Shown here in pieces: positions 16,146 through 36,260 of a stretch of 64,000 nucleotides of DNA. The position numbers were made by a program, and so were the translations under genes. Every line of letters begins with the position of its first letter. The first letter of the stretch is position 1. This DNA comes from Pseudogymnoascus verrucosus (Eukaryota). The stretch lies in assembly GCA_001662655.1 (NCBI GenBank), contig KV460245.1; one strand, 5' to 3'. The notes under the pieces were generated by a model. It made no database searches and was not told the DNA's origin. It saw nothing but the letters and a program-made list of their open reading frames with translations.

Positions 16146-16286
16146 AAACACCTGGATATTACTTAAATCGGTGCCATCTGGCCTAGCGGGTGAGCCTCGC
16201 CGCCCTTACCCTTGTTTCGACCACCTCGACCATCCAAAAGTGGGTCCATTTTTGACGACGTGTTGCACTGCGACATTAGATGCACA

Positions 16287-16398
16287 CAGGTGAGCTGGGT
16301 GGGTAGGTGAGCATGGTGAGCAAGGTAAGCAGGGTGAGCAGGGTGAGCAAGGTGAGTAGGGTGAGCTAGATGGGTGAGGAAGGTGAGTATGGCTGAGC
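16287..16398 (+). repeat. Left subterminal array of degenerate 9-bp CAGGGTGAG repeats (element 1)
   Basis: caggtgagctgggtgggtaggtgagcatggtgagcaaggtaagcagggtgagcagggtgagcaaggtgagtagggtgagc... Confidence 0.85.
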
Positions 16399-16835
16399 TA
16401 GGGACATGGTATAAAGGGCTAGTCTCCCGCCTTCACATTTCAAGGTCCTCTTTCTACAACTTTGTATTTTTTTCAATATCTACTACAATAGGACGGAAAG
16501 CCCTTCCTCCTAAAGATCGGCTTGCTCTGGCACAGAAGCGAGGCTATTCTGCGTAGTTTTGTGGAGGCGTTTGGTATGGACCGTGCACATTGCGTCTCGT
16601 ATATGAGGCTGAGTTGACTCCTCTCGTTCAAAATCCTAGCATTAAGCTAGGCGTCCAATCGTCATTCAAATTTTCGATCCCAAATGGTATCTGGCACTTC
16701 CTCAAGATCGGTATAGCCGGTTACAGTGTCTCCCCCCTTGAAGTCTACAGCTAAACCACACGCTACGCTTCTGACGCACACCATCCTTCGTAACAGGCAT
16801 CATCTTTAACGTTTATATCACGCTCCCCGTGATAA

Positions 16836-18759
16836 TTAAATGCTAACCTTAATAACATCGGCAATCTTCTCTGCAATCGCATAAATCGTACTCGTCAAAT
16901 GCCCACTGACCTGGGTCGGGATAACACTTGCGTCAACAACCCTTACGTTCTGCGTCCCGTAAACCCTCAGCTCACTATCCACAACTCCGCCAAGCTCTCT
17001 TGACATCATAGCTGCCGTTCCTAGTGGGTGTGAATTCCCAGCAACTTGGTGAATGTCAGTAAGAAAAACGTCCCAAGAGAGGTAGGACACTAACAAGTGG
17101 TCTTCACCCAATTCGCCCATTGCTCATAAGAAGCATCTTTAGGCAATGCATCAAATCCAGGAGACGTCTCAGTTGCGAGACCTTGGATAGGAGGCGTTTC
17201 CCAGAATTTCCTTGTCCATTTCGCAATCGCTACTTGGACGTCGACGTCAAAGTCAACGAGGAAATAGTTTGGGTTTATGACCGGATATGCCAAAGGATCC
17301 GAGGAGCTAATATGCACGTTGCCTCTGGAAAAGGGCAGTAAAAGCCAAAATGCTGAAGCTACCAAACCGCTTGGACCTAAGCCAATACTGAAGGTTGTCT
17401 CGAGGATTGATTCTGCATCCACAACGCCGTTGTTAATTAATTCATATTGTATGCGGAAAAGTTGTTCCAACGATGATACGCTAATAGCATGATCGATTGC
17501 GACTGCAACTTTCTCAGCCCAAGCCGTTAAGTTGACATTTTTAGGCAGCGAGTCCAAAAAATCAGAAGCTGAACCGAAAGCTACGTATGGAATAGATCCA
17601 CTAAACGTTGTATTAGAAGACATGATAATCTGGCTGTTCGGTTGGTCTTGTAAATTTTCGCCGACGGCGGGGAGGTTGACCTTGACAGGAATTCCGGATT
17701 TATTTAGGATGCTTCTCACGTCAGTAAACTTGGTGTGTTTTTGAGGAGGCTTAACTACCTGGGATTTCCTATTCCTGAGAGCTCGAGAATGGCAGGAGAT
17801 CTTAATGAGCCGGCTGAGAGAATGACTTCACGTTTGGCATCAAGGGTAGTAACTGTGCCATCCGCAGCTGTTATTTCCACACCACCTGCAACAGCGCATT
17901 CGCTCGTGGACTCTCGCCAGGTAATCCTATTTGCAACTGTGTTTAGGAACACGTGAAGATTGGGCCTGCTTTGAACTGGGTAGTAATACGCTCTACCAGC
18001 ATCTTCTCGCAGGTTAGCATCCCGATTCATGGTACTCTGCCAAACAGTAAAGCCTCGAACATTGCCACCATTAACATCAAGACTCGTAGGAATGCCCAAA
18101 TTGTTCCATGCCTGTTCTACCACTTCGTGGTATGTGCCATTCAGCAGTCCAAAGCCATATCCTACATTTAGTGGACCTTTTTTGCCATGTTGTTGTGAAA
18201 CGTATGTTGCACCTGCTTCGACTTGAGCAGATGTGGGAGAATCGAACTGCTCGCTTTTTAGGTAATACGGGAACAGGTCGTCCCAACTCCATCCACTATT
18301 TCCAAGTTTTTCCCAAGCATCTATCTGAGCTTTCTCTGCGCGCACATATGTCATGCCTAGATTTGTTAGCGATCAACATTAGGGATGCTAAGATCATACC
18401 ATACCATTGATTGTGCTCGTTCCACCAAGAGCTTTGCCAGAGTGATATGCGATTTTTTGGTCTCCTGCATGAGTTTGATTGACAGATTCATATTGCCAGT
18501 CGATCGCGGTACCAAGGGCGAGCGTGAAGGAGTTTGGGTCCGTCACATTCGGATTGTTAATGACTTCACCGCCTGCTTCAATTACTGCGACAGTAACATG
18601 CGGAAACTCAGTAAGTCTATTGGCCAGAGTCAGGCCTGCTGTTCCACCGCCAACAATAATAAAATCAAACTCGGGTTCCAATGCGGCACAATGGGAAACT
18701 AGCAAAGCTGGTGCGACAAGGACAAATGCCCAAGTTCGAAAGTGAGTTGGAGCAATCAT
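16836..18759 (-). CDS. Secreted GMC oxidoreductase (glucose oxidase/dehydrogenase-like, AA3), 4 exons; cargo of element 1
   Basis: Signal-peptide-like N-terminus, [15 protein letters not shown] motif, [47 protein letters not shown] and catalytic HPLGTAAM and [13 protein letters not shown]. Three GT-AG introns all splice in frame. Confidence 0.92.
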
Positions 18760-18866
18760 AATAGAAAGGTTTAAAGTTGACAGTAGCGAGGTGGGCTACG
18801 GGAATTTCTTAAGATTATTATGGGGCAGTGCATGGGTTTTATAGTTCTTGACGATGACGAAACTAT

Positions 18867-18963
18867 TAATTCGGCCCTATCCTTTCTTTCAGGGAGTTGA
18901 AAGATAATTCGGCCCTATCCCTATCCCTGAAAGAAGGGATAGGGCCGAATTATCTTTCAACTC
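18867..18963. repeat. Nested inverted repeat: perfect 29-bp hairpin plus an overlapping 28/29 inverted copy
   Basis: 18894-18922 is the exact reverse complement of 18935-18963 (12-nt loop). 18867-18895 pairs 28/29 with 18924-18952. Confidence 0.9.
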
Positions 18964-19016
18964 AGTAATAAATGGGGTAACTTTTGAGACTAGTGTGCAT
19001 TTCGTAGGATTTTAGT

Positions 19017-19051
19017 GCCCTGCTCACCCTGCTCACCCCTCGCCTCACCCT
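19017..19051 (-). repeat. Right subterminal CTCACCCTG array (element 1), inverted relative to the left array
   Basis: gccctgctcaccctgctcacccctcgcctcaccct. Confidence 0.8.
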
Positions 19052-19122
19052 TCAGGCGGCAAGGGGCCGTGATTCCGCGCCATGCCTATTGGCACGATTG
19101 AGACCATTAGTCTGATGTTACG

Positions 19123-19183
19123 CAAGCTTGTGTATGGCAGAGCGGACGGGATGCCCAATTCTCTTGAGTCTATGGTCGTATGT
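19123..19183 (-). rRNA. 5S rRNA: 5S rRNA gene 1, 5' part (nt 1-61)
   Basis: Reverse complement reads ACATACGACCATAGACTCAAGAGAATTGGGCATCCCGTCCGCTCTGCCATACACAAGCTTG, with the canonical fungal 5S start and the CATCCCGTCCGCTC loop. Confidence 0.92.
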
Positions 19184-19752
19184 GGAAGATGAGGACGTAT
19201 CCATGCTTTTGAGGCGAGTGGACTTGCGTAGGATAGAGATGCAGGCTAGACTTCCCACACCCTTACCACCACTATTACTTGATCTTCGTTAGGACCAACT
19301 GGCCGTGAGTAGACGGCGGTGTAGTAGGGTATCATGTATGTATTCGTTATCCAGTTATTACTTTCTCTCTCGTTTTGCTCTTGTATGAACGAATAATGAG
19401 AATAGCAGCCTATATATACTAAAATCATTCCCAGGTTTAGACGACTGCACCAAGATACCATCACTTTAGCAGATAGAAAATAAACCCCCCCGTTAACACA
19501 GATGCTTTCGTCTGGCTATGAGGAAGTGCGATGCGGGGGGAGGGTGATTAATGAGTGAAGTGCGTTTGTATTCATATCTATCTATCTCCATTTATCATCC
19601 GGATATGCACCAGCTGTCTATCAAAACCGGCAAACGCCTCTCAATGCAACTTCCGAAAAATACCATCTATACCACTCCCGAAATAACCAATTTCTCTCCC
19701 ATATCTCTCTCAATCTCCATCCCAACCCCCCACCCCTCAATTCCCTTCCCAC

Positions 19753-22700
19753 TCAATTCCCCTCCCCCTCCCCAACCCTCCACCAAGCACTCAAACAATC
19801 CACCCCCCCCCTCCTAACCTCTCTCCCCCCATCCCCCACCACGGACCCCAACCCCCTCACCACCCCCCCTCTCAACCTCGCCACCACACTCACCTCCCAC
19901 ACCTTCGGCAAGATCTCCAGACATTCCAGCGCGCGCACCTTAACCTCCCTACTTTCCCTCCCCGTCGCACAAGCCAACAACCTCTTCACGAGCGCTGCGT
20001 CGTGTTCTTGTAATGCCTTCGGGCTGCTGGTAGCGGCGGAGCGGAGGACGGCGATGGAGGCTTTCTTTGTGGCTGCGGGGGAGGAATCCAGGGATTGCAG
20101 GAGGGGAGGGAGGAGGGAGGGGATGAAGGGTGTTATGTACTCCTCCGGCGCATGCCCCAACAATCCCGATAGCGCAACGAGGACATTTGTTTTTGTCGCG
20201 GCAGAAGTGGTAGGGGAGGAGAAGGTGGAGAGAAGGGCGGGGACAGCGGTGTGGAAGAGGCGCTGTTGTGCGAGGGGGCGGATGAGAGCGTGTTGGCGAC
20301 GCGTGAGAAGTGGTGAGGGCGCGAGGAGATGCGTGAATGCCTGTGCGGCCAACTGTCCCGTCGGCGCTGGTAGTTCGAGCGCGGATAAGAGGGCGGTGGT
20401 TAATTGCGTCGCAGCAGGCAACCCAGCGAGGAGAGAGGCGTGCGTGCACGTCGTCAAGGTTTGAATCGTCAACTTCGCCTCCTGCGCCGACAGCGAGGGA
20501 AAGGTAGTGAAAAGACCCAGGAGCTGTGCTGTGACAGCAGGAGTTAGAGCGGCGAATTTGTTGATCAGGAGGGAGAGGATGTCAAGCAGCGTGGAGCGCA
20601 AAGCCGGGGTGGAAGAGGTGGTGGCGAGGTAGGTGATGAGGTTTGTGACGGCGGCGGTGGTGTTGATGGTTAGGATGCGCTTTTTGACGGGAAGTGCTGC
20701 TGGTGGTGGGCTGGCGGCGACGACAGAGGCGGGCTTGGTGACGCGGTTGTCACGGCGTAGGGTGGCGAGGATGTATTTCGTCAGGGTTAGAGCGTGGAGT
20801 TTGTCGGCGGGGCCGGACAGGAGGTCGAACTGCGCATCAATGATGTCGATGCGCTTGGAGATATCAGTGTTGGCGGAGAGGTCATCGTCGACGGGGAGGT
20901 CGTCTGGTGAAGTGACGGCGACGCAGGCAGCGGTGAAATCATCGTATGCGACGCTCAACGCAAATGCCCTCTCAAAGATCCAGTACTGCTCCTCAAAGCC
21001 CATCCCGCAGGTGGCAGCCATGATGATCCTCCCCACGACGTCCAGGAAGGTATCGTCAGGCTGCACCTTGCCGCCTGCGGTTTCCAACTCACGGGTCCCG
21101 ACATACCACTTCTTTGAATGCACCTTGAGCGCCGCGGTGCGACGAAGCAGTTCATCAACAAGACTGCGATAGTCCTCCTCATCTCTCATTGCGACCTCAC
21201 CATTCTCACTCTGCGCCTGCCTCTGCTCGACAGCGTATAAGATCCCCGCAAGCACCAGGTGTGCGTACTTCTGCGACTCGTTCGCACGGAGGACAATATC
21301 CAATTTGCTCAGCAATCTCCGTAAGAGTGTGTCCATAATTCGTCCCCTGGAGCCAATATCACCCAACGCTTGCAGCACGGCGAGTTTGTCCGCAACAGTC
21401 TCCTCACCTTCCAAAACATCCGGCAACGAAGCCAGGAGCACAGGGAATGCCTGCTCAGTAACCAAACGGGTATATAGCACCGCACACTCCTGCAGTGCTT
21501 TGATGGCCTCTTTCCTCACAGGCTCTTTCAGATCCGCCGTCTCGAGCACAACGCCGGCCAAAAACTGGACATACGAGTCCAAACTCCCCTTCTCCAGGAA
21601 CTGCGGCAGCCTCAGCAGCTTCGCCAGGCCCTGCATGGCCGCAACGCGGAACTGCTTGTCATCGCACTGGGTATCCCTCGCGACGCCCATATACATCGCC
21701 GTCAGCTCGTCACGGTAGTACTCAAGTCCCTTGTTCGCGACGCCTACATCCGTTCCAGACTCAGACGCGCGATCGGCATCAGAGCTGATCCCGTCAATAA
21801 TCCCCACAGCGCTGAAGTCCCACTTATCCTGTCGTCTCAACGCCTCAAACTTGCCATCGAGAAGTAAATTGGTCGTCTCGACCACCGCGCGCTTATCGGC
21901 TACACTTGCATCTCGGCCGCTAAATTCTTTCAACAGCTCGGGGATCGCGGCGCGCATGACGAGGTGATACGCGAATGGCGATGCGGCGATGATGGAGGCC
22001 ATTATGGCACCAGCACTGGCGGAGTTTTTGGGCCCGTTCTCGCGCAAACGTGTCATGCACTCATCGACGATAGCGGCGACGTAGGTCTGCAGCACGGTGC
22101 CGACGAGGTTTTGGATGACGAGGTCGCCTGAGAGGCGGGCAGCGATGGCGCCGAGGACGTCCAGGGCTTTAGGGGCTTGAGAGTCGTCACTCGAATTAAA
22201 GATCTCGTATTTCAAGGCATCCCATAGAGGGCTGCTCCATTTGGAGACAGTGGTCGGGTGGTAGCGCTCGATGCACGCTTTCATAGTGAGTAGCACGTCG
22301 GCTTTGGCGTTGAGGCGATTCGGGTCGTCGAGGCGCTGGATGAGGTTTGGAAAGATGGAGGGCGCGAAGCCGCTATAGGCTGCGAAACATTTCCTCAATC
22401 TCAGTACCAGCTCGGGTGGATCGATGCTGGCGGGATCATTCTTCTTCGCCGAAAAGGTAATCGGAAAGTATCGCGAGAGCAATTCATAAAGATCTTCTTT
22501 GAGACTATCGATATCATCGATATCCCACTCCGCGAGTATCACCTCCACCATCGAGAAGATGAGCATCAGATTCCTCGGATCCCTCTCGCTCGCCGACAAC
22601 TCAATAAGCATATTAATGAAATCCACACCCGTGGCCTTCATCACATCGCGGTGTGCGCTCAGAAGCTCATCCAGCAGATTATAGACTTCGAACCTCGTCA

Positions 22701-23374
22701 TCACCGACATCTTGGTGAAGCCTCCCGGGGCGGCCTGGGCGGCATTGAAAACCTGAGAGACCAGCGTCGCTGCACGAGCGGCCTCAAAGCGCAACATTGC
22801 CACAAGATAGCGCAGGGATTGAACGGTCTCCTTGAAGCCGCTCGGGTCGAGGCCGAGGCGTGCCTCGACGAAATTGAAGAGGAGTCGCACTAGATGGTTG
22901 TGTTAGGTGAATTCCCCTCAGAGATAAGGAAGGATAAGGAGGAAAGGAAACTCACCATTCGATCGCGTCAGGGCGTCGGGTTTGAGACCGCGCAGGATGG
23001 CTGCGACGTACTCCATGGCTATTTGTTGTCAGCTCCGTGTTTCCCAATTCGAGATCGGGGTTCGGGGGGGTAGACGACGTACTTTGTGTCTTCTGCTCGT
23101 CGTCGTTCCCGAATAACGGATCACGCAGCGAGAGCACGACATCTCCTAGTTTGGTACTCCCATCTTCGAGTCCTGTGGTAATCAGATGTCAGCTTTGCTC
23201 CTTCTATCCATGTCACCCTCATCACCCCGGAGCCGGAGACACCCATGTCCTGCCTACCTCTCTAGAATCACAAAATCAAGCACACATACCTTTAACAACA
23301 CTCTCCACGATCTCTGTCCTCCTCTCCCCTTCAGGCGCCAACAGATACGCAGTTGCCGTCAGCGAGTCCTCCAT
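19753..23374 (-). CDS. MMS19: MMS19/MET18 cytosolic Fe-S assembly HEAT-repeat protein; short 5' exons approximate
   Basis: 1045-aa exon with ERDPRNLMLIFS, YFPITF, LRLRKCFAA, LWDALKYEI and C-terminal IRPLAQQRLF, LLPPLLQSLD, REVRRGGVDCLSAW. Upstream exons inferred from ATG 23374. Confidence 0.85.
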
Positions 23375-23737
23375 CTTGAATGTTGGTGGAGGTGACAGGC
23401 AAAAAGGCAGTTCAATGCTGTTGGACGAGGAAGTTTGGGTAATCGGAGTTATAGCGGAAGATGGTGGATTGGTGGGGCGGGGTTACTGCCGGCGTGGCGC
23501 TATGCCTGATGGGGTGGGCGGTGAGGAGAGGGGTCGTCGGCGAGGCGATGTCAGAATTGGGTGGGACAGACAGGCAGGGACCCATTTTCTCACATGTCGA
23601 GTAACCTCCCGCCGCCGTCTTCCGCGGCCTTCCGCCATAGCTATGATTTAAATTTACGAGGCGGCAGTTTACTATTAATGCTCATCGTAGCCATTCGGAG
23701 GGATTTTAATAGAGTTTTTATACAATGAAAAGGTATA

Positions 23738-23870
23738 TAATAAAGGTGATAGAAGGTGTGATAATAAATGTAATAATAAAGGTAGGAATAAATTAATAAG
23801 TAAAGTCAAATAATAAAGCTGATAATAAAGTCAATAATAAAGCCATTAATAAAGACAGTAATAAAGCCAA
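23738..23870. repeat. AT-rich degenerate repeat with about 12-bp period (TAATAAAG core)
   Basis: taataaagct gataataaagtcaataataaagccattaataaagacagtaataaagcc. Confidence 0.65.
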
Positions 23871-24171
23871 TTATATTAATCTCTTAATTAACTACTCAAT
23901 AAACTCATCTCTGCCCTTCCATCTCCCTCGTCCCCTTCCTTCATTATAACCACAAAACAAAAAGAAACATTTGCCGCAATAATGAGGCTCATGGCGTCCC
24001 TGCGGCCAGGCAATAGACAAAACCGTCTATTCCTCCAAAACGCCATTCCTCCCGCTAAACAGCGCCATTTATGCCGATTTCAAGTCTGATCACGTCCTAA
24101 AACGCGATCAGAATCTTACTTCCCTTCTCTTCTCCCTCAGGATCTCAAGATACAAAGAATGCTCAGAGCGT

Positions 24172-24438
24172 TTAATGCGGCCCCATAATATTCCCCCTCC
24201 CCGCCCCATACTTCTCCATCATCGCCTGAGTCGGCGTACGCGCCTCCTTTCTAATCGCCTCCTTCTCTGGTGATGGGCCAGAGAGGATTTTCTTTGTTTT
24301 TTGGAGGAAGGAGTCTTTTTTTGGTGAGGGTGTCTTAGAGGACGAGGATTGTTTGGCGTCGCGGATGGTGTCGGCGCTGGAGGCAGTGGTGGAGTAGGAG
24401 TAGGTGGATGAGGCGTAGGAGGTGCGTGGGGAAGGCAT
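24172..24438 (-). CDS. Small Ser/Lys-rich hypothetical protein (88 aa)
   Basis: ATG in a good context (accaaaATG), product MPSPRTSYASSTYSYSTTASSADTIRDAK..., codon usage like neighbouring genes. No family recognised. Confidence 0.5.
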   Translation of the reverse strand: MPSPRTSYASSTYSYSTTASSADTIRDAKQSSSSKTPSPKKDSFLQKTKKILSGPSPEKEAIRKEARTPTQAMMEKYGAGRGNIMGPH

Positions 24439-26540
24439 TTTGGTGGTGGTGGTGGTGGTGTGGTTGGTGTGAGTGTGGTTTGGGAACATATAAATTTGTT
24501 GATTGGATTGAGGAAGTTGTTGAGTTGAGATATTCAGTATGCTGATTGTCTTCTGTCTGTGATTCTGATTCTTTGTCTGTTTCTGCTCCTCCTTTCCGCG
24601 CCCATCGAGGGTATACTTATACTTTAATCCACAAGCCTCAATCAAGCCCATCACAACCTACCTCTCATTTCCAATCCACGCACACGCATCCGCCTACGTA
24701 CCGTCCCTCGTCAGCATCCAGAAACTACTGTACCTTCTTTCCTCACCGAGTCCAGATCCAGACCCATCAGTCGCCTCTCCATATCCAACTTTTTCCCCCA
24801 ACCCCAGCCACATACACCCACTACTCCCGATTCCGATCGTCTCACCTCTGCCGCTGACTCACCACGGGCTCAGGCAACTACATTACCTAGCACTCCACAC
24901 GCACACACACGGCATCCTTGTTCCTGAGGCGTCAGCACGGTGCCGTAAGCCGGTGTATATCGGACGCGACCAGGAAGGTTCTGGTGTGCGCATGGACTGG
25001 AGTCTAAATTATTAGTGCGTCTTGTAGTTTCTCCGACCATACTTGTGTCTTGTGTTTTGCTGAGCAATCATCTTCTCGAATGGAACTAGGAATGGCGTTG
25101 GACTATCAGCGCTGGTGGCAGTGGGGCGGGCGTGCGTAAGACGCTTTTCCGTTGGTGGATGTGCCAAGGCCTGTCATGGCTGTCATGGCTGTCATGGCTG
25201 TCAGATTTGTTCTGGGTGTCCGATTTTTCAATGGGTGACGCGCCAACCGAGGGTGATAAGGCGAGAATTGAGTTTGCTGTAGTGGAAACGATCGTATTGC
25301 AGTTTAGTGAGTTTGGATGCTCTAGTCTGGATGTTTGTTAGTTAGTTCGTATGACGACGAGATGGAGGAGTCAGAGAGAGCCAGAGAGGTACGTGCTGGG
25401 CTGTGTTGAAATGAGTGGAGGATGAGAAGGGGATGGGGAAGGTACGGATAGAGTTGGATCGCTGTTGCTCTACACAACCAACGACAACCAAACAACAACC
25501 AAAGTTAGTGTCCCAGTATAACCTCATTCTTGCCTAATCCTACTACTCACTCTCTCACCTAGACTATATCAAGAGGGAAGCACCAGCAATCCATACCCAC
25601 GTGACACCTCTATATACCACCCCAAGTATGAAAAAATACAGTGTTCAGTCTTCTCCTCGCTAACACAACCCCCTCCAACCCCTCCAACCCCCGCATGACT
25701 CAACCCCCAAAAACCCTCACCACATCATCCCTCCGAATAAGGAATAGAACAGAATAAGCACACAAAAACCTTAAATCCCTCGCCAAGCCGTTGACGAATC
25801 CATTGCGTCGCCTTGCGGCCATCGCCCATCGCAATTTCCCATGCCTTGTTTGTGAGGATACTACTGCGGCGACGACGTGTCAGAGGTAGAGTCACAGACC
25901 GGATGGCAGGTGGGTCTCGGTACGATAAGATGGGATGATGGATGGTCTAGATGGGGGAAGCTGGACTGGATACTACTATGGCAGTACGTGATGGTTTTGT
26001 TGATGTTACAGAGGCAGGCGTTGATGATGATGGCGTGGCTGTGCATCGGGGAGGGAAGGCTCTATGCCGGGGTGAGGGGGAGTACCGGTGCCGTGATGCC
26101 GAAGGGGATATTAATTACCAACTGTATACCTCGGCGAGTAAAGAAGCAGGCGATGCGAGACGACGCGTACGAAGTGCTTCAATGACGCCATAGGTGTTGT
26201 GGGTGGGGTATAGTATATTACAGGGCGTTAATCACGTGCTTGACTTTTAAAAAGTTGTATCTGAAGGTATACCTCACGACCCTCTCTCTTGATGGATATG
26301 GTCCGTCATATACGCGGAATCAATCGCACTCAAGGAGGTAAGTTACGCCGATATGACGGTTTTACGGGGCGTTATCGACGATAGCCAAGATATCCACGCC
26401 CTTCTCAAGACATAGGTATGGAGCTCGTATTAGGTAATCAGACATCGGCGACGTATATACTTCCACATCACAATATTCTCATATCCTCCATATCACCAAC
26501 TCCATTTTTTACATTCTCCAACTCAGACGCTATCCTCACA

Positions 26541-27812
26541 ATGACCGTTCCCAAACCCCCAACCCGCATCCTCATCCTCGGCTCCGGCGTCGTCGGCTCC
26601 TCCCTCGCCCATGTTCTCTCCACGTCCTCCCTCCCCCCCTCCACCACAATTCAAGTCCTCTCTCCCCCTCTCACCACACTCACGACCTCCACCTCCCTCG
26701 CACCCGGTCTAGTCGGACAACTCAACGCCCTCCCAGCTCTCACCACTCTCGCCAAGGCAAGCGTGAAGGCGTATCTCACTCTCCCACCAGGAGCTTTTTC
26801 TCAAGCCGGGGGGTTGGAGATTGCGAGTTCGGCTGAGGGGATTAAGATATTGGAGGAGAGATTGGAGAAGGCGCGGGAGGCGGGGTTGGAGGCGCGGCTC
26901 GTTGATTCGGAGGAGATTGCCAAATTATCCCCGCAATTCCACGTCAAGGATGGGGTGTCGAGGGGTCTTTATTTCCCGACTGATGGCGTAGCGGAGCCTT
27001 CAAGGATCGTGGAAGCCTACCAGGCCTCCGCGCGCGCGAATGGGGTGGAGTTCATCGAAGCCATCGCGCTGGGTATCAAACACCTCAATGGCGTGGTGAA
27101 GGGCATCAACACCTCCGCCGGCTTCATCAGCGCCGACAAAATCATCGTCGCAAGCGGGATATGGAGCGCAGAGTTACTGAAGGATATCCTCCACATCCCT
27201 GTTATTCCTGTTGGGCACCCCTACCTCCACGGTGCGCCGCGGCCGGAGAGGGGGGAGAAAAGCCCGTTTGTCCGCTGGCCGGAGAAGGGGGTTTATGGCC
27301 GCGACCACGGCGCCTGCGAAGGATTCGGAACCTACGACCACGCACCCCTCCCCGTTGCCGCCGCGGAGGGCGCAGAGAAGGGGTGGGCTCCCGAGTTTGA
27401 CTCCGCTGTTGAACGGGCGCTGGGGTTATTCCCCTCAGAAACCAGGCAAGCAATGACAGCAGACGGGTCTCGGAAATTTAACGGTGTCTTCGCGGTAACC
27501 CCCGACGGACTCCCCGTGGTGGGGCCAGTGGGGGATATAAATGGCCTCTGGGTCGCGGCGGGAGTGTGGGTTACGCATGCGATGGGCGTTGCGGGGTTAG
27601 TTGCTAAGATGGTTTTGAAGGAGGAGAGGGAGGTTGAGGTTTCGTCTGGGGGCGAGGGGAGTGAAGTGGTGGAAGAGGTGGTGGTGGTGGATGAGGAGTT
27701 TGAGGAGTTGAAGAGGGTGTTGAATCCGGGGAGGTTTGGGGGGAGGGGGGTGGAGGAGTTGAGGAGGGAGGCGGGGGGGAGGTATAATGATATATATAAT
27801 CTTGAGGAGTAG
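26541..27812 (+). CDS. FAD-dependent oxidoreductase, DAO/sarcosine-dimethylglycine oxidase-like
   Basis: RILILGSGVVGSSLA dinucleotide-binding motif, TSLAPGLVGQL, GLYFPTDG, FNGVFAVTPDGLPVVG and GLWVAAGVWVTHAMG. No introns. Confidence 0.85.
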   Translation: MTVPKPPTRILILGSGVVGSSLAHVLSTSSLPPSTTIQVLSPPLTTLTTSTSLAPGLVGQLNALPALTTLAKASVKAYLTLPPGAFSQAGGLEIASSAEGIKILEERLEKAREAGLEARLVDSEEIAKLSPQFHVKDGVSRGLYFPTDGVAEPSRIVEAYQASARANGVEFIEAIALGIKHLNGVVKGINTSAGFISADKIIVASGIWSAELLKDILHIPVIPVGHPYLHGAPRPERGEKSPFVRWPEKGVYGRDHGACEGFGTYDHAPLPVAAAEGAEKGWAPEFDSAVERALGLFPSETRQAMTADGSRKFNGVFAVTPDGLPVVGPVGDINGLWVAAGVWVTHAMGVAGLVAKMVLKEEREVEVSSGGEGSEVVEEVVVVDEEFEELKRVLNPGRFGGRGVEELRREAGGRYNDIYNLEE

Positions 27813-29535
27813 GAGGGAAGGGAATTGATGGGATGGATAATAGCTGTGGATGGACTGGTTGAAGGTATGTGTGAGTTGATAGTGTTTAAAAAGGCGTTCT
27901 GTGGAATATGACGTGGATGATATAAAGGTCGGTTTACACCTCCTATACAACAAAATAAATCGAAAGGACATTGTCCACCTTGAAAAAAGCATCCATATGT
28001 GAAGTATGATGCATTCCCAAGATGTTGCGCTTTCAAGTCCAACATAGTTGCACCGGGGATTACGGTGTGGTATAGCTGATATCGTTGCTGTCGCTGCGGT
28101 ATTCTCGTCATCGTCGGTCTCTTGTCACTGCTGTATTCTCATCTTTCATTACTCCATCTCCTATCCCCGCTCACGGGAAATGTCTAAGCACATCAATCTC
28201 AAATCCGCAACCCCCATCTAAAAACACACACGGACGATGTTGAGAATTGGTGTAGCGGTTACTAGCTGGGTTGTAGTTCACATCAGGATCGGTCGTTGAG
28301 GGCTTTTAATCCCCGTCGGTCATTCCGGAAGGATAGATTCTTGCCTGTTGCAATGGTAGTTATTTTACACATCATACATTTCGAGATGTAAGAGGTTCCG
28401 TTGCCCGTAAACCCCACGCATACCGATTGAGGCCGAGTCATACAAGAAAAGTGCGAAAAGAAGGGGAAAAGGAGAGGGTTCTCCCCGAGGCGCGGGGTAG
28501 CAATGAGAAAAATAGCGTAAAACTATCACCTGAGAACCACTGCCGACAGACATGAGGAGGAGACCACAGAAGTTGGACATTGCCGTGGTGGATCTGATAT
28601 CGTTGTTCCGCTATAGCCCTTGCTGTCGCCTCTGTTTTCTCGTTGCTGTGGTATTCGAACCACCGCCGCCGCTTCCTGTCACCACTGGATTCTCACATTC
28701 ATGCCCGCCAGTCTACCATCTATCTAGCGCCATATTGAAGCCTTTGCTTCTCCTTCAGCTCGGGCCAACGCTGATAAATTCTGTTTCAATTCCAATCTCT
28801 CGGCACTCATTTAGAGTGACAGTGCGAGGATTATCCTTGCTGTGGTTGCTCTGTCTCTTGCGTGTATTGCTTTATTTCCTGTCTCTTCAGGTGTAGGATT
28901 TAGAGGCACATTAATCTCGAATATGTTGGCGATGAATTTGTTCTCGGAATTATACTCATCATCTCCATCTTCACTCTCATAAACCTCCTTCTGCTGCTCT
29001 CCTCCAGCTTCATCCAGCTCTACCATATCACCGCATAACTTTGTATCTATTTTATACACATTCTGTATCGGATCGTTGCATCCCATGAAATAAATACTGA
29101 ACGAAGACTAGCGATGAGCCCTCACATCTGGAAACTACTATATGCCTGTTCTTGTAGCCTAGGTTGAATATCAAGCAAGGAGGAAAACCGCCGTCGTTGC
29201 GTTGTCGCTGCAGTTCCATTCTCGTCGCCGTTGCACTCTCGTCACAACCGCCCCTATCTGTCACCGCGCTGCATTCTGACGATCGTATCCGCCACTCCAC
29301 CATCGACCTACTGCCTTAATAAAGGAAAGTTGTAAGTATGCCAACCTTAGGACGGGACTTGCTCATCTCTTGTATGGGTTGTGGTAATAGAAGACGGGAA
29401 TTCTGGCTTCTGGCCCGGTGATATAGGTATCGACCCTATATGGGCTTCTCGGTTTGAGGCTGGAATTGCTCTCCCCTTTCCCACCCCCGACCCTAACCCC
29501 CCAAAAATAGGAATGAAGCAAAAGAATAAACAAAA

Positions 29536-29598
29536 ACATACAACAGTGGGTATTCGCTGGTGGTCACCCACCCAACTACTAATCCACCGATCTCAAGC
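29536..29598 (-). rRNA. 5S rRNA: 5S rRNA gene 2, 3' part (nt 57-119), interrupted by element 2
   Basis: Reverse complement reads GCTTGAGATCGGTGGATTAGTAGTTGGGTGGGTGACCACCAGCGAATACCCACTGTTGTATGT, followed by a T-run terminator. Confidence 0.92.
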
Positions 29599-29757
29599 AA
29601 TCCTCTAGATAATAGTTAAACCGGTGCCATCCAGCCTAGTAGTTGAGCCTCGCTGCCCTTACCCTTTTTTTGTGATCGCGACTACCTCAACCACCTCGAC
29701 CACCCAGAAGTGGGTCTAGTTTTGACAACGCGTTGCACTGCGACAGTGGACGCCTTT

Positions 29758-29838
29758 AGGTGAGCAGGGTGAGTGGGCGAGCGTGCTGGGTATGGTGAAC
29801 AGGGTGAGCAGGGTGAGCAGGGTGAGCAGGGTGAGCAG
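29758..29838 (+). repeat. Left subterminal CAGGGTGAG array (element 2)
   Basis: Four perfect tandem CAGGGTGAG copies (29800-29835) plus degenerate copies upstream. Confidence 0.88.
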
Positions 29839-31417
29839 AGGGTCACATGTGAGACGGGAAACTCGTTCTTCATCCGCTGCAGCACCACTATATTGCAGAT
29901 TTGATTTGGGCTTCGTTCACAAGAGGATACAATTAAGAGGCCTGTGCGCTAGTAAGGTAGCCACAGCTTATACGGAGCTTATGTTCATAGGTTTTGTGAG
30001 TGGGGGGAGATATTAAAGCCTCGCGCACGGCTCCGCGGAAATCGATGATGTATCTCGCCTTATATTTTGTACGTGATCGATACATGAGTATATGCTGCTG
30101 TGCACAAATCCTGGGTCCCTTGTTCGATCCACTCGCAAAACTTTTGAACATTACCCCTGTACTGACTCGTGTGAAGGGTCAATACTTGTGAACTACTGGC
30201 CCTGCTCAGCCACCACTCCTTTAAGAAAATATCAAATTCTGGTGCTGTGTGTTGTGTGCCGCGATGTTCGGCCGGCACCTGTTTCATTGGTCGGATACTT
30301 ATAGGGAGGTTATGTACATAAGTTTTGTAAGTGGAGCCTGTGTGTTGATGCCACTAAGACGGAATCTGCGGGGTATGCTTAAAATGGAAATTGTAACACC
30401 CTCAATCGCAGGGAACCCCAGCTTTAGTTGGTTGGTTGGGGTTGGTTAGGGGTTGTTGGATCTGGCTCCGAAAGACTGGTGGTTGGTAACCTCTCGATTT
30501 TGGAGTATGAGCTCACGCCTACCCCATAAAGAGCCTTAAGGAGAATTGGGGCATTATTACGAGTGGGTCTTTACGTTCGTAATTAGCTTAATTGATCTAC
30601 GTGGCTTACGCTATTGAGTGTTACGCTACCATTCTAAGCGTACCCCGCAGATTCCATCTGTGTGGTATCAACACACAGACTCCACACTTTGTCCTAGGCC
30701 ACCTGTGGATAGAGATGCTGTAAAGAATCACACGCCAAAGGCTCAATCAATGTTGGCTTTTGCAAGGGTAGAGTGGCTGATTTTAGGAAGTGAATGTCTA
30801 TACGGAGATATATACACGCCATACCATGGTGGACTTGATAGAAGACTAGTTGGTTGGAAGTATGAAGAGATCAAATGAGACGGGATGAGATTTGGAGAGG
30901 GGATAGATAGTTGGTTGAGGGCGCTATTTTTGTGGGCGCGGATGGTGGAAGGGGATCCACTCCATGTGCATGTATGGGATGGAAGTTGCGCGGTATAGCC
31001 CTCAGCTACTATCCCCTGAGTGATTATCGCGACACGCTCTGTTAACAAAAGGCAACTGCGAGTTAGATCTTCGTATTTACGCCTTTGTACCAGGTTACTT
31101 TCTGGCAAGTTCCGGCATTGACAAGGCGCTATCAGGGGAGCTGTTAGGGTGCCATCATTTTGACATTCGCCAAAAGCCCGTATGTGACATCGATCCGCCT
31201 CGGAAGTGGTTTATATAGTCTGGGGTTCCATTATTGCTCCAGAACTGGTGCGAATTACCTTCTCCATCTCAGACTACATACAGCCACATCACCGCATCAA
31301 AACAATTGTTTTGAGGTGGCGATGTCTGTGCTGTTGAGTAATATATATGTATTCTTCGGTTGCAGTGCCTAAGGTCTATATATCCATGATATTGAAACCA
31401 ATTGCATGAGATGAGCA

Positions 31418-32903
31418 ATGCAGGTCCTTACAGAGGAGCAAACGAGAGCGCTAGCGGCCGAAACTAGAGGTCCCATTCTCCTCGGTCTTTCGATATCCTT
31501 TACCGTTTTATCTTCCATCTTTGTGGTATTACGAGTCATCGCAAGGTTCTGGATTATTAAGGGTGCAGGATGGGAGGATTATACTATAGTGGTGGCTGTG
31601 GTACGTAAGAGGACGCGAATTGTTATCGAAAGACACAGTCTAATATACTACGTCTTTAGGCCTTCAACGTAGGAATGGCAGCGTGTCAGATTCAAGGTGA
31701 GCCTTTCCTTTAGCTTCCTGATCTCCACGACACCCAATTGCTAATTCCTCCTCAGAGGTGAGATATGGCACTGGCCGGCACGTACAGTTTCTTGAAACGT
31801 CACAAGTCGTTGGCATTCTCAAGGTCAGTTCCATTGCTCTCTCCAGAAAATCCATTGATCTCACGCTTATAGTATCTCTTCTGGAGCATTATCTCTTACT
31901 GTGTCACCCTTAGCCTCGTTAAAACGAGTATTCTCCTCCAATACTACCGCATCTTCGGGGGGAACGATGCAACGAGATATGCAATCTACGTGGCCCTCAT
32001 CATTGTCATCGCATTCGGAACGGAGTGCGTAATCAGTGATATCTGGACCTGTGTACCAGTTCAAGCCTTCTGGGAACTCAGTCTCCGGCCGACCTCTAAA
32101 TGTGTGGATCAGAACAAGTATGTATTCATGCACGCGGCTAGGGCGACGATTCGAACTTCATACTAACTTTGAGCAAGGCTCTTTCTGGCCAATGCCTGCA
32201 TAAACATCGCTACCGACCTGATAATTGCCACGATTCCTCTGCCCATCGTCCATAAACTCCGCATCCCCTTCCGACAAAAAATTGCATTGATGGTCATCCT
32301 CGGCATCGGTTGGTTGTACGGAGCCCCTTCTCCCCCTTCCCGCAATACCACAAAGCTCACATCACCCCACATAGCATATGCGCCGTTTCCATGCTCCGGC
32401 TCAACTCCATCATCGGCCTCGCTAAGCAAGCCGACACTACCTTCTACAGCGGTGAAACAGCTTACTGGTCCACTATCGAAGTCAACGTCGCGATCATCTG
32501 TGCCTGTCTCCCGACGTTAAATCCTATCTGTAGGCTGATCTTCCCACGCTACTTCAGATCGACCCAAAGCGCGAAGTATGACTCGAACAGTGAGCGCATG
32601 TTAGGCAACAACGCGTTCGTTCAGCTCGCTGGGGGCGCCTCTGCGTCGAAATCGAGGCAGGTGGGCAAGAGGAGCTGCAATGGGGACGAGGACGGGCTGC
32701 GAGCGGCCGAGAGGTACCAAGCGGGGGTGGCGGCGAATCTAAATGGAGACGACGGGAGGGCAGAGGATGGGAACGAGCAGGCGATTCGGGTGGAGAGTAG
32801 CGTGCAGCAGACCGTCTACATCGAAGACGATGAGAGCGGGCAGAGTTATACGAGTGCGAGCGTGAGCCAGAGGGACTTGATCCCTATGGTTCCTGGGCGC
32901 TAG
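31418..32903 (+). CDS. PTH11-like (fungal rhodopsin-domain) 7-TM integral membrane protein, 6 exons; cargo of element 2
   Basis: Spliced motifs VVLRVIARF..GWEDYTI, YGTGRH, KTSILLQYYRIF, CVPVQAFW..C, NIATDLIIATIPLP..KL..PFRQK, ICAVSMLRL and WSTIEVNVAIICACLPTL. Five GT-AG introns splice in frame. Confidence 0.9.
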
Positions 32904-33090
32904 TGGAAATGGAGCTTCTCCTTTGACGATTTAGACTTCATTCGTGAGTATGGCTCACAAATGACAAATAAGCTATAAAATAAGAGCAAGGCACCCTTAA
33001 TATGGTATGTAAGTTAAGATAGCCAAACTTCAGTGCTGATACGAGAATGATGCGGAAGTGACGCCAAACTAACACAAAGATGTTGCTTTG

Positions 33091-33158
33091 CCTCACTCAC
33101 CCCACTCACCCCGCTCACCCTGCTCACCCCTACCCTCACTCAACCCTCGTCTCACCCT
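33091..33158 (-). repeat. Right subterminal CTCACCC array (element 2)
   Basis: cctcactcaccccactcaccccgctcaccctgctcacccctaccctcactcaaccctcgtctcaccct. Confidence 0.82.
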
Positions 33159-33229
33159 TCAGGTGGCAAGTGGCCCCGATTCGGCGCTATGCCTATTGGC
33201 ACAATTGAGACTATTAGCCAGAGGATACG

Positions 33230-33290
33230 CAAGCTTGTGTATGGCAGAGCGGACGGGATGCCCAATTCTCTCGAGTCTGTGGTCGTATAT
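33230..33290 (-). rRNA. 5S rRNA: 5S rRNA gene 2, 5' part (nt 1-61)
   Basis: Reverse complement reads ATATACGACCACAGACTCGAGAGAATTGGGCATCCCGTCCGCTCTGCCATACACAAGCTTG. Confidence 0.92.
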
Positions 33291-34355
33291 GATTGTTCTT
33301 TGAGTATGGCACAATGTAGGGGTGACGAGACTCTCGGATCGAGACCACAGTACGCCACCCTTTTTATTTAGCCTCCGCCCCCTCCCGTTTGTTGCCGACT
33401 ACGGCCATTTTATATTGCCCCTGCTTGTCGCAGTATATCTGCCGGCTGAGGGGATCTCAAGGTAGCTAACTCCGTCTCTTCTGAGTGTCCCCTTCTCATG
33501 TTTCCTCTAGCATGGGATATTATAGAAGCTGGGTATCGAGCTAATATATCTGATATAATTGCTCTCGCTGCCCTGCTGCTGAGGTGCAGGGATATGGAAA
33601 CCTCGCAAGCATAAAAAGGGAACCTTGGGTCTGAAACGACAGCCAGAAGAAGAAGAGAAAGTCGAGCAGGAGAAGGCCGCGAAAGAGAGGGCTGAGCAAG
33701 AGAAGGAGACTGAGAGAATAAAGAAAAGACGCCTCTACGAAGAGGCCTTGAGCCGTGAGCCAACTATGAAGTGAGGCGTAAAGCGCTGTTGCTGTATTCT
33801 CATCGCCATTACATTCTCGTGATGGCAGCCTCTTGTCACCGCTACATTCGCTGGCATAGTTCGTGCCTGCCCCCCTACATCCATAAACACTCCTCCGGTG
33901 TTGACTCTCTCCATCAGTCGTAGCTCAGCTCAATATCCTCCCATTTCATGAACTCTTCCGTGTACCCCCCTCTCGCTAGGGGCGACCCCTCTTGCCTTGT
34001 AATATAGTGCGACAGCAAGCCCGATTGTGAGAAGTTCAGAAATCTAACTACTGGTAGTGGTCTGGTACTAGATAGACACCTGCGTGGCTGGAGTAGTTCC
34101 CGTCTCCTGTTCGTGCGTAAATAGGGGCTGGTATCCACACTGGCAAAACTGGGCCGCGTTTCTCTTGACCGATCGCAGTTCATGAACGTCGATCATATCG
34201 ACTACCCATGAAAGGTATCTACGAGCATTTCACAACACGAACGACGAAGGTAAGATGTATAATATTATAAAAGAATGTGGTTCAATTTGAAGAACTACAA
34301 CCGAACAGAAGTACAACGTGGCAATATTCCAGCCAACATTTCAAAGCCTCTCCCG

Positions 34356-36260
34356 TCAGGCAATCTCCTTGCGCGTAGCCTCCTCAACATGCGCCATGCT
34401 ATCGCGGTTAACATCGTCCTTCTCGCCACCGAAATGGATCTGCTTCTCCACAGCCTCAACAGCCTTGTCGGCGAGAGCTTTGTCCTCGAACACTGCGTAC
34501 AAGAGTCAGCAAGCAGTTCAAATTTGCGCAGTGAGAGGGTAAACTTACAGAAAGCGAGTTCCTCGAGCGTACGCCCTTGGGTCTCGGGGTACATCCAGTA
34601 GACGAAGGAGAACTCGAAGAAGATCCAGCCGCAGTAGATGGCGAAGAACTTCCAGTCGAGAGCATCGAGGGCGAGCGGGTTGACGTAGGTGGAGAAGAAG
34701 CCACCGAGCTTGCCGAAGATCTGCTCGATTCCGATACCACGGCTGCGCTCGGCGTAGGGGAAGAGTTCGACGAGGTAGGCTGGTGGAGTGTTAGTGGGAG
34801 TTTAGCTTTTGGGGGGTGGGGAAAAGGAGCGTACTGTATGTGAGGGCGTTGTTACCCATGTTGTAACATGGGGAGTAGGCGAAGTAGAAGAACAGGGCGG
34901 CGATGGAGGCAGCTTGGTTCTTGGTTTTTGCGTTCTTGGCCTCACGTAGCTTCTCGAAGGAAATAGTCATCGAGATGAAGACCATCAACATACTCGCCGC
35001 AGAGATCATGAACATGTGGCGACGCTTGAATCGCGTGATGATCAAGGCGAGGGCTGTGGCGTTCATGAAACTCCAGCAGTTGTTGGCGATGTTGATCCTG
35101 GTCTTGGCAAATTTGGTGGTGTATCCCATGAGTTCGAAGAGGAGATTGGAGTAGTACGAAAGAAGCGTGTTTCCAGACATCTGTGTGAACAGGCCGAGCA
35201 TCATGGCGATGACCACACGACGACGCATACCGGATGTTCTGATCATATCCGTCCAGGACTGTTTCGAATGTTCCAGCTCCATCTTGATGGTTGACTTGAT
35301 CTGTGCCATTTCTGCCTTTGCAAGTATAGAGTCTGAGTCACCCTCGGCGTGGTACTTGACTAGAACGGCGTAGGCTTCCTCGTCGCGGTCCTTGCTGATC
35401 AGCCAACGGGGGCTTTCTGGTAGGCAACTATATACTAGTTAGATCATGCGCAGTACTTTTGGGATCCAAAGCAGCGTATACGTACAAGACGAAGCAGATC
35501 TGCAACAATGACGGGCAGATTTGGAGGATAGAAGGCAGACGCCAACTCCAGTTACCCTTGATTTCGACAGTTCCGATCGTGATCGCGGAAGCCGTGATGG
35601 CGCCGATAAAGTAAGAAGAGTTGAATAGGGACGTCATAATGGCTCGCTCTTTGGGGTATGAAAGCTCTCCAATCATGGCAGATGCAGCAATAATACACAT
35701 AACAATGCCAAATCCGAGGATCATACGGGCGATGATGTACATTGCAACTGAAAATCTGTTAGAACTCTGCAAAGGCACACTGTGCCGATTCACTTACTGT
35801 GTTGAGAGAAGCACTGCAGGATTGCTCCCACGACCATGATAACAGACCCTATCATGATCGCCCATCTTCGACCAAATCGCTGGTTGATGTACGGCGCAAC
35901 TGGAACACCGAAGATTGAACCGAGTTGGTAGCAAGCTGACATGAAGCCCAACAAATTTGGCTTAATCGCCGGCTTCCCCTCCTTCAGGTAGCCATCGCCA
36001 AAGTCTAGAATATGTTAATACTTTTTTACACCGAATTCGCTGCAGGATCACATACAGATGAGATACTCTGGCGTGAGCTGGAGGGTGTTGATCAACTGAG
36101 AATCAAATCCAGACGTCATCTCCACACCCATGCAGCAGACGAACAGGTAAAAGTACAGAAGCCTCAAATTCTTTTTCTTGTACCACGGGACCTTGTCCTC
36201 CGCGACCATGCGCGTGAGGATGGGATCGGACGTGCCATCGGCAGCAGAAATGACACCCAT
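34356..36260 (-). CDS. MFS sugar porter (lactose permease/hexose transporter-like), multi-exon
   Basis: GFDSQLINTLQ, ARMILGFG, GELSYPKERA, WSWRLPSILQ, PESPRWL, FTQMSGNTLLSYY and PETQGRTLEELAF. Stop TGA at 34358-34356. Confidence 0.9.

Follow-up and report, generated by a model that had tools for sequence, protein, structure and literature searches.

Two 5S rRNA genes of Pseudogymnoascus verrucosus split by small single-gene elements that match 5S-targeting Starships in insertion site and end motif

In the Leotiomycete fungus Pseudogymnoascus verrucosus, two 5S rRNA genes on contig KV460245.1 (assembly GCA_001662655.1) are broken in two, each by an insert of some three kilobases that holds a single intact protein-coding gene. 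Both are contained in the stretch of 64,000 nucleotides (64 kb) analyzed here, which is called the window throughout. The insert of element 1 (E1) occupies positions 16146-19122 (2977 bp) and that of element 2 (E2) positions 29599-33229 (3631 bp, between the split points 29598/29599 and 33229/33230). The two interrupt different 5S genes at the same site, share their end sequences and carry unrelated cargo, namely a glucose-oxidase-like oxidoreductase gene in E1 and a gene for a receptor-like membrane protein in E2. Target and ends are compared below with those of Starships, giant cargo elements whose movement depends on a tyrosine recombinase of the DUF3435 type (the 'captain').

Two 5S rRNA genes split at one site

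Both broken genes lie on the minus strand. In the gene that holds E2, the 3' part (nt 57-119) is found at 29598-29536 and the 5' part (nt 1-61) at 33290-33230; the corresponding parts of the gene that holds E1 are located at 16145-16083 and 19183-19123, and E1 together with its split 5S extends over 16083-19183 (minus strand). The pentanucleotide GCTTG (5S nt 57-61; CAAGC on the plus strand) is present at both junctions of either element, in E2 at 29594-29598 and, as the second copy of this direct repeat included in the 5' part, at 33230-33234. It also stands at the single junction read in L003, a larger member of the family seen in 10.1 kb read of a 19.7-kb metagenome contig (RCNJ01000357.1) that is independent of the window. 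A T-run, the usual terminator of polymerase III, lies just past the 3' end of each broken 5S (beyond 29536 for E2) and, together with the halves themselves, indicates that the targets of E1 and E2 were once genuine 5S genes.

At the Rfam gathering score no 5S (RF00001) is detected in the window; only the two 3' halves give partial matches of ~25 bits each (24.8 bits for that of E2), and the two 5' halves alone give no 5S match, a half gene in mid-stretch being undetectable in this way. The split was placed by means of other sequences, among them Logan contigs of four related genomes (organisms B to E, runs X2-X5) aligned on window positions 15001-35000. Contig depth in these relatives does not equal copy number and is used as a ratio to single-copy contigs (~17-56), and run X3 apparently has two contigs per single-copy place, so that its counts are possibly doubled. 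In all four relatives a high-depth contig joins 29593 to 33230, with 3636 letters skipped and 5 letters that fit either side; its depth of 510-1202 in organisms B to E gives a ratio of roughly 20-30, which fits a multi-copy intact 5S. In addition, metagenome contigs were scanned with 5S nt 35-61 and yielded six loci, five of which hold an intact 5S reading AAGCTTG followed by AGATCGGTGG (AAGCTTG/AGATCGG), as the rejoined halves read, the sixth being L003. The five intact genes reach 50-75 bits in Rfam, where the gathering score is 38, and the 3' part of E2 is in register with the intact 5S of two of these loci, L002 and L004. Three of the metagenome contigs (L004, L005 and L006) show the same intact 5S locus with identical flanks and are taken as one organism sampled three times.

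When the halves flanking E2 are rejoined they give a 5S of 119 nt with five differences from the intact 5S of L004, two of which form a compensated pair (86/93). At minimum energy it folds into the same three-way junction as L004 (-33.7 vs -35.3 kcal/mol), the fold of the intact genes that score 71-75 bits in Rfam, and in helix II GACTCGAG pairs with CTTGAG-A-TC, including one G-U pair. The rejoined gene of E1 has 7-8 differences from intact 5S and has lost the three-way fold (-27.4 kcal/mol). The split halves hold private substitutions, and those in the rejoined genes imply that the halves around both elements have drifted since the split, E1 further than E2. The 5S sequences around E1 and E2 are thus disrupted former genes, not working ones. 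A previous reading of this DNA made from the letters alone (the sequence-only reading) had described a 5S gene split by a 3631-bp insert, whose rejoined halves form a 119-nt 5S with intact helix II pairing. The junction repeats, the join in the relatives and the intact metagenome genes show the split to be exact to the base, and the fold, equal to that of L004, bears out the pairing with its one G-U pair.

Shared ends and their copies

In a blastn comparison of E1 with E2, the outer limits of similarity are 5S nt 1 and the 3' end of the 5S, the flanks and the interiors being unrelated. On the 5S-5' side the common end measures ~100 nt with 88% identity, and on the 5S-3' side ~250 nt with 80% (80% over 310 nt by blastn; 87% mean column identity in MAFFT). 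L003 agrees with them in its 5S half, in GCTTG and in the adjoining end, which is 84% identical over 170-190 nt. In E2 the end adjoining the 5S 3' half lies at 29599-29840 (minus strand; 87% mean column identity to the E1 end) and the end adjoining the 5S 5' half at 33131-33229 (minus strand), where a three-way alignment of E1, E2 and L003 reaches 80% mean column identity with long invariant runs. In the alignment of the three members, the terminal ~20 nt are variable, positions 25-80 are nearly invariant (TCTCAATYGTGCCAATAGGCAT..., GCCNCTTGCCNCCTNAAGGG) and GGTGAGC repeats follow. The same end sequences at the same 5S site, in blastn as in the alignments, agree with the earlier description of two elements with shared ends.

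The termini of E2 are significantly inverted-repeated, with a terminal inverted repeat (TIR) at 29599-29630 (minus strand) and a score of 11 against 2.7 +/- 1.4 for shuffled sequences, none of 2000 shuffles reaching the observed score. An inner inverted repeat is conserved ~22-24 nt from each junction, reading AATCGTGCCA on one side and TGGCACCGATT on the other in the alignments; one half of it in E2 (GGCACCG...) is placed by alignment with E1 ~22 nt from the junction, within 29599-29840 (minus strand), and conserved blocks come after it. Deeper inside, 84-160 nt from the junctions, are arrays of the 9-mer GGTGAGCAG. The left array of E2 (29759-29838, plus strand) comprises 9.0 copies according to Tandem Repeats Finder (TRF) and a GGTGAGC scan, and its right, inverse array (33094-33130, minus strand) comprises 4.1 copies, CACTCACCC on the plus strand (TRF; GGTGAGC minus-strand matches at 33113 and 33122). 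TRF finds the equivalent arrays of E1 at 16289-16366 (plus strand, 8.8 copies of GGTGAGCAG) and at 19018-19038 (minus strand, 2.3 inverse copies). Among the 21 GGTGAGC sites of the 64-kb window, 15 fall within these four arrays, on the plus strand at left ends and on the minus strand at right ends; 9.19 +/- 3.0 sites are expected from shuffling, and 0 of 100 shuffles reach 21. From their sequence and arrangement, the GGTGAGCAG arrays are candidate recombinase-binding sites. A scan of the metagenomes with a 23-mer from the long end gave no matches.

Ends of the E2 type are multi-copy in all four relatives. Per relative, 7-17 contigs run across 29621 and 29667, in the end adjoining the 5S 3' half, and 5-10 across 33079 on the opposite side, and each run has 5-9 loose contig ends where the element meets the 5S 5' half and 5-7 where it meets the 3' half. 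End pieces of E2 type and of E1 type are combined in a further copy, which recurs in X2, X4 and X5 and, going by its joint, in X3 as well. Position 33229 is joined to 16141 in X3, X4 and X5 (organisms C, D and E), each time by a single contig of single-copy depth; 5 letters fit both sides of the joint, and its shorter side measures 38-46 letters. This joint is absent from the contigs of organism B and from the window. Taken at face value, the succession of right end, one CAAGC and left end means either that two elements stand head to tail or that an attP-like site has become fixed in the chromosome. A head-to-tail junction is the expected product of repeated site-specific integration.

E1 and E2 are only 10 kb apart and in the same orientation, as they would be if no mobile element were involved and a single ancient rearranged 5S locus had been duplicated locally, its interior being replaced later. 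Such an origin is nevertheless highly improbable, given that the flanks outside the 5S halves are unrelated, that many further copies per genome stand in other contexts, and that L003 combines the same junction and end with a different cargo on an independent contig. Moreover, housekeeping genes (MMS19 and a DAO-family oxidoreductase, the latter at 26385-27812) lie between E1 and E2. On the other side of E2 there is a sugar-transporter gene at 34295-35438. The window at large is a gene-dense core region of a Pezizomycotina genome, with genes for inositol polyphosphate kinase, ERCC4 nuclease, MMS19, DAO-family oxidoreductase, tubulin and VPS11 among its contents.

Cargo genes and their history in the relatives

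The cargo gene of E2 (31418-32903, plus strand) is intact and consists of six exons (31418-31600, 31660-31696, 31756-31823, 31873-32117, 32178-32315 and 32375-32903) separated by introns that are all GT-AG. Its 399-aa protein is identical in 399 of 399 residues to VE01_07811 of P. verrucosus, has seven hydrophobic segments and matches positions 1-235 of 237 of PF20684 (Fung_rhodopsin; 239.8 bits) as its sole domain. Classical PTH11 also has an N-terminal CFEM domain; the domain search found none in this protein, which is therefore 'PTH11-like' in a broad sense only. Upstream of the gene and inside the element are ~1.58 kb of non-coding DNA (29841-31417, plus strand), where the only open reading frame (ORF) of at least 150 aa (30743-31210, minus strand) has no Pfam match. 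The sequence-only reading had proposed a six-exon gene for a seven-transmembrane protein with about 1.5 kb of upstream DNA, oriented opposite to the cargo of E1 relative to the shared ends; the gene model agrees with it, and so does the orientation of the E1 gene, at 18759-16839 on the minus strand.

Within the upstream DNA of E2, an inverted repeat with arms of 57 nt (30331-30387 and 30629-30685, 88% complementary, 241 nt between them) looks, from its structure, like a small miniature inverted-repeat transposable element (MITE) nested in E2. Direct repeats lie near it at 29960-30005 and 30290-30335, and position 30090 is found in 2-5 contigs per relative.

When the last exon of the E2 gene (175 aa) served as query, with the search restricted to longer proteins, close relatives came exclusively from Pseudogymnoascus, with four members in the 90% cluster; beyond it come a second cluster at 76% identity and next an Aspergillus protein at 34%. 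Since the last exon is mostly variable tail, this search says little about the origin of the cargo. For strain VKM F-103, NCBI has a model of 440 aa (P0001) that splices from ~32861 to 33607, across the right end of E2 and the 5S 5' half, so that its final 55 residues are encoded outside E2, at 33607-33771. The model for P. verrucosus, of 399 aa, ends within E2 at 32903. An artefact of gene prediction is the probable origin of the longer version, though it may reflect a read-through or spliced transcript.

The cargo of E1 is an intact gene for a 592-aa glucose-oxidase-like GMC oxidoreductase. It matches GMC families only, its nearest counterparts outside the genus are Leotiomycete proteins with 63-69% identity, and by these similarities it looks typical of its lineage. 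L003 differs from both small elements in extending over more than 10 kb: a methyltransferase-like ORF (1096-1731) is followed by a Tc1-like transposon and then by LysM and GH18 genes, indicating that large cargo-bearing members of the family exist. In the last group (4860-10091) are two ORFs with LysM domains and a chitinase of family GH18 that has chitin-binding domains; both labels, 'lysM' and 'GH18', also appear among Starship cargo of A. fumigatus (PMC12153272). The Tc1/mariner-like transposon of 1.47 kb (1937-3404) has perfect 37-bp TIRs and an open 456-aa ORF (1937-3307) with helix-turn-helix and DDE domains, and looks young. This DDE ORF was considered as a transposase of the element family and rejected, as it sits in its own 1.47-kb element bounded by those TIRs.

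Both cargo stretches are present at single-copy depth in all five genomes (the window and organisms B to E), and no second copy of either was found in the four relatives at an identity of at least 80%, so the native donor locus that had been envisaged for the E2 cargo was not seen there. In organism B a single contig leads from the left 9-mer array through the E2 cargo into the right repeat (29807-33233) with 4 differences in 3427 letters, and continues for 275 letters past 33233 without placement on the window. In organisms C to E contigs stop inside E2 at 29926 and 33005 (32930 in D), and flank contigs start at 33286-33298 and end at 28996. The gene was accordingly not seen at this position free of element ends, which would have spoken against the earlier reading: the contig of B holds the cargo plus both end regions, and those of C to E stop inside E2.

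The E2 cargo of organisms C, D and E differs by ~2.2-2.3% over 31088-33005 (to 32930 in D), and the right flank by 2.0-2.7%, a similarity that makes the E2 cargo look vertically inherited. For the E1 cargo (16422-19047), organisms B, D and E show 13, 13 and 18 differences in ~2620 letters and organism C 5.5%. The MMS19 region beside E1 differs by 1.2%, 4.0% and 3.2% in B, D and E, and the E1 cargo by only 0.5-0.7% in D and E. Mosaic exchange of short fragments between lineages has been described in Pseudogymnoascus (PMC4438637, in the part covered); as such exchange is known from the genus and the left flank of E1 also looks little diverged in D and E, the low divergence of the E1 cargo is given little weight. 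In line with the same report, organism B (X2) has a sharply mosaic segment, being 7.8% different across the DAO-family gene (26537-27772) and 0.06-1.2% on either side.

Relation to Starships and other known systems

Statements on published systems in this section refer to the parts of the papers and of the starfish supplement that were covered, the review PMC10946416 excepted. The starfish paper defines a Starship by a captain encoded at its 5' end, cargo, direct repeats and sometimes TIRs, and describes conserved structural features as lacking (PMC11162782). There, 5S rDNA makes up 23% of curated insertion sites, with at least five different positions used in the gene; most Aspergillus Starships of the Enterprise family target it, and the direct repeats of 5S-targeting families measure 6-16 bp (PMC11162782). 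Osiris of A. fumigatus targets 5S rDNA as well (PMC12153272). Reported Starship sizes are 27-393 kb (PMC9156397) and up to ~700 kb (PMC12134995).

In the examined part of the starfish supplement (PMC11162782) the string aagccaca occurs 32 times, and captain-bearing Aspergillus elements are listed with the direct repeats aagccacacg, tttaagccacac and tgtggcttaagtacggctga, which correspond to 5S nt about 43-64. Of these strings, AAGCCACACG aligns with AAGCTTGAGA (nt 55-64 of the 5S of this fungus), which contains GCTTG. The TIR strings given in the supplement are tgggtgagctacg / cgctagctcacccga for aspacu4_s00331 and aaagcggcctcaccc for aspjen1_s01490, while aspnig13_s01999 has the TIR string gggtgagtgcgggtgag and the direct repeat gctaag; the captains of all three belong to 'fam06' (DUF3435). 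This family is presumably Enterprise; the label 'fam06' does not occur in the starfish main text. E1 and E2 share with the 5S-targeting fam06 elements the target at 5S nt ~55-64 and the inverted-repeat motif GGGTGAG / CTCACCC, the first half of which lies towards the 5' part of the 5S gene and the second towards its 3' part, as in those elements, the orientation of minus-strand starfish entries having been deduced. Direct repeats at both boundaries that match the target (GCTTG) are present as in Starships generally, and so is the optional TIR feature, represented by the termini of E2 and by the inner inverted repeat and inverted 9-mer arrays of both elements.

A number of observations weigh against assigning E1 and E2 to Starships. 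No DUF3435 captain, recombinase or transposase was found in either element (0 of 54 ORFs scanned, out of 79 window ORFs of at least 150 aa), and the 10 kb read of L003 contain no recombinase linked to the ends, although a captain would be expected at its read end by analogy with aspjen1_s01490. The size of a Starship with several cargo genes is not reached, E2 (3631 bp) and E1 (2977 bp) having one gene each. The direct repeat is 5 nt long, compared with the 6-16 bp of 5S-targeting families; the arrays stand 84-160 nt from the junctions, compared with 31-49 nt for the catalogued TIR strings; and the inverted repeat of the E1 termini is not significant (p = 0.175). The motif match depends on short, automatically found starfish strings and, for minus-strand elements, on a deduced orientation. 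The examined part of the supplement contains no Pseudogymnoascus Starship with a 5S direct repeat, and only paralogous intact 5S genes were seen, no empty orthologous site or insertion polymorphism coming to view in the contigs of the relatives, which break at repeats. The idea that the ends mimic the 5S sequence beside the core, in the style of attP/attB arms, was tried and dropped as not significant (p = 0.5-0.9).

The remaining entries of the supplement are of the same kind. In its examined part no direct-repeat or TIR string equals or contains aagcttg, and none equals gcttg, caagc, tcaagc, ctcaagc, tctcaagc or caagct; psesp.9_s08975, the sole Pseudogymnoascus element with boundaries, has 'insert' rows and no direct-repeat or TIR rows in the passage covered. 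Eight recombinase genes are listed for P. verrucosus, and the seven whose families were read fall into fam01 (two), fam04, fam08 (three) and one unassigned, with none in fam06; fam06 captains are present in another Pseudogymnoascus genome (psesp.2). A Starship family is defined by captain phylogeny, and the placement of E1 and E2 relies on site and motif; having no captain and being small, they are not full members of the 5S-targeting family.

Weighing these points, we give slightly better than even chances to E1 and E2 being miniature, captain-less descendants of a cargo element of Starship type whose integration is specific for a site in 5S genes. As far as their sequences tell, they work like, and probably descend from, 5S-targeting Starships. 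The following course of events, from the recombinase at work and the function of the repeats to the deletions and the end of mobility, is our inference. The DUF3435 captain of a full-length relative would have recombined the element with a 5S gene at a short shared core, GCTTG (5S nt 57-61), which belongs to the 3' strand of helix II and to the internal promoter region, leaving one copy of the core at each junction. The inner inverted repeat ~22-24 nt from the junctions and the GGTGAGCAG arrays 84-160 nt inside would be likely binding sites of the recombinase. The captain and most of the cargo may later have been lost by internal deletion or cargo turnover, and the remainder would be two ends and a single gene together with the DNA upstream of it. 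The ends and the target point to Starship-type (tyrosine-recombinase) elements, in which cargo is regularly exchanged, and this makes gene 'capture' by a small transposon unnecessary to explain the different cargo of E1 and E2. The sequence-only reading had concluded that cargo is captured with its own promoter, independent of orientation. As a description this stands, there being two intact unrelated genes in opposite orientations with upstream DNA inside the elements; capture from a donor is less well founded, no donor copy having been seen, and the upstream DNA is a putative promoter.

DDE transposons such as hAT, Mutator and CACTA are classically organized in the same way, with TIRs, a short repeat on either flank and repeat arrays below the termini, and Dada families that target 5S genes exist (PMC8869645). 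E1 and E2 could accordingly be a non-autonomous 5S-specific cut-and-paste (DDE) TIR transposon with 5-bp duplications, similar to Dada-5S or to gene-carrying 'Pack' elements and unrelated to Starships, and the lack of a captain in the scanned ORFs of the window and the read part of L003 suits that view. It appears quite improbable all the same. Dada duplications measure 6-7 bp (PMC8869645) against 5 nt here, the only DDE ORF (L003 1937-3307) belongs to the nested and unrelated Tc1-like insertion, leaving no DDE transposase tied to the ends, and both the site and the GGGTGAG motif coincide with those of captain-bearing Starships. A head-to-tail junction through one copy of the core is, in addition, not expected from a transposase that makes staggered cuts, and L003 with its several cargo genes exceeds 10 kb.

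If E1 and E2 are of Starship origin, they might still be mobilisable, as non-autonomous 'mini-Starship' cassettes of 3-4 kb that are moved in trans by captains elsewhere, insert one gene each, promoter included, into 5S genes and accumulate in head-to-tail rows. They would then be a fungal counterpart of the cis-mobilizable elements (CIMEs) of bacteria, which derive from integrative and conjugative elements (ICEs), are bounded by recombination sites, have lost the integrase and may share a conserved target in an RNA gene with a complete element, the two in tandem; the analogy is one of function only, as CIMEs belong to another domain of life and to another recombinase family. Long end blocks are invariant in E1, E2 and L003 while their surroundings diverge, which suggests constraint on the ends; the two separate units have exactly one intact gene each; and the junction of right end, core and left end is found in three of the four relatives. 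An engineered mini-Hephaestus does transpose, fam06 captains occur in the genus (psesp.2), and the E1 cargo is only 0.5-0.7% away from that of organisms D and E, against 3.2-4.0% in the MMS19 region. Against these stand both cargo being single copy in all five genomes, with no amplification and no presence/absence variation, ends of E1 and E2 that are only 80-88% alike, decayed 5S halves, the lack of fam06 among seven of the eight P. verrucosus captains, and mosaic divergence that short-fragment exchange already explains (PMC4438637). We consider present mobility unlikely, and it is equally doubtful that Pseudogymnoascus has a family of natural cassettes, each with one gene between Starship recombination sites, that are moved in trans into 5S genes and stack via the 5-nt core. 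Should the elements move in trans after all, they would form a non-autonomous tier of the Starship system comparable to CIMEs or integron cassettes, and the minimal cis-acting ends would come down to ~100-250 bp with the inner inverted repeat and GGTGAGCAG arrays.

As derivatives of a Starship-type element, E1 and E2 are in this genome most likely an old, fixed and immobile relic whose cargo has the standing of ordinary host genes. The single-copy cargo in all five genomes, the decayed 5S halves, the 80-88% likeness of the ends and the lack of fam06 among seven P. verrucosus captains point this way. A natural derivative of about 3 kb with both boundaries, together with a second and a distant third copy, narrows the candidate Starship recombination sites to the 5-nt core, the inner inverted repeat ~22 nt away and the arrays of one 9-mer. 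In the giant Starships known so far, cis-acting sequences are poorly defined. Their occurrence outlines a route by which a single ordinary gene (for a receptor-like membrane protein or an oxidase) may become a stable host gene after decay of its carrier. The same motif and 5S position in captain-bearing Aspergillus elements hint at an old choice of target and at binding sites shared between fungal classes.

The closest known systems are the 5S-targeting fam06 Starships of Aspergillus (aspacu4_s00331, aspjen1_s01490, Osiris). They use the same 5S stretch, their AAGCCACA(CG) aligning with AAGCTTGA(GA) here, which contains GCTTG, and resemble E1 and E2 in flanking direct repeats, in the same polarity of GGGTGAG / CTCACCC to the 5S, in variable cargo and in the fragmented 5S. 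They differ in having a captain, in their size of tens to hundreds of kb compared with 3.0-3.6 kb and one gene, and in a repeat of 8-20 nt compared with 5 nt; the elements described here have arrays of 2-9 copies, further from the junction, and reside in a Leotiomycete (Pseudogymnoascus) instead of a Eurotiomycete. Voyager of Macrophomina phaseolina likewise always inserts into and disables a 5S gene, yet it is giant, has a captain and inserts 20 bp from the 5S 5' end (PMC9156397), compared with insertion after nt 61 here. Degraded Starships such as 'Derelict' (PMC9156397) have also lost the captain with cargo persisting, but they are large regions known by several accessory genes, with boundaries usually lost, whereas E1 and E2 keep both boundaries and the split target around one ordinary gene. 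A literature search for natural captain-less or miniature Starships returned, in the parts of the sources covered, only the engineered mini-Hephaestus, the non-autonomous ToxTA, which is not a Starship, and 'degraded Starships'. No published counterpart was found there for a ~3-kb unit that retains both boundaries and a split target around one ordinary gene.

Outside Starships, Dada-5S of fish shares sequence-specific insertion in 5S genes and short flanking repeats, but Dada elements make duplications of 6-7 bp, encode their own transposase and are reported from fish and a protist, not fungi (PMC8869645), whereas E1 and E2 have 5 nt and, in the ORFs scanned, no such enzyme. According to a review of 2024, no insertion of a transposable element within a 5S gene was known to its authors (PMC10946416), a statement that the Starship papers contradict. 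Scattered half 5S genes are also familiar from filamentous fungi as truncated 5S pseudogenes (Rooney and Ward 2005, cited in PMC5555474). These have been understood as pseudogenes of a birth-and-death family (PMC5555474), whereas here each half is one side of an insertion, and E1 and E2 offer a concrete reading of some of these 'truncated 5S pseudogenes'.

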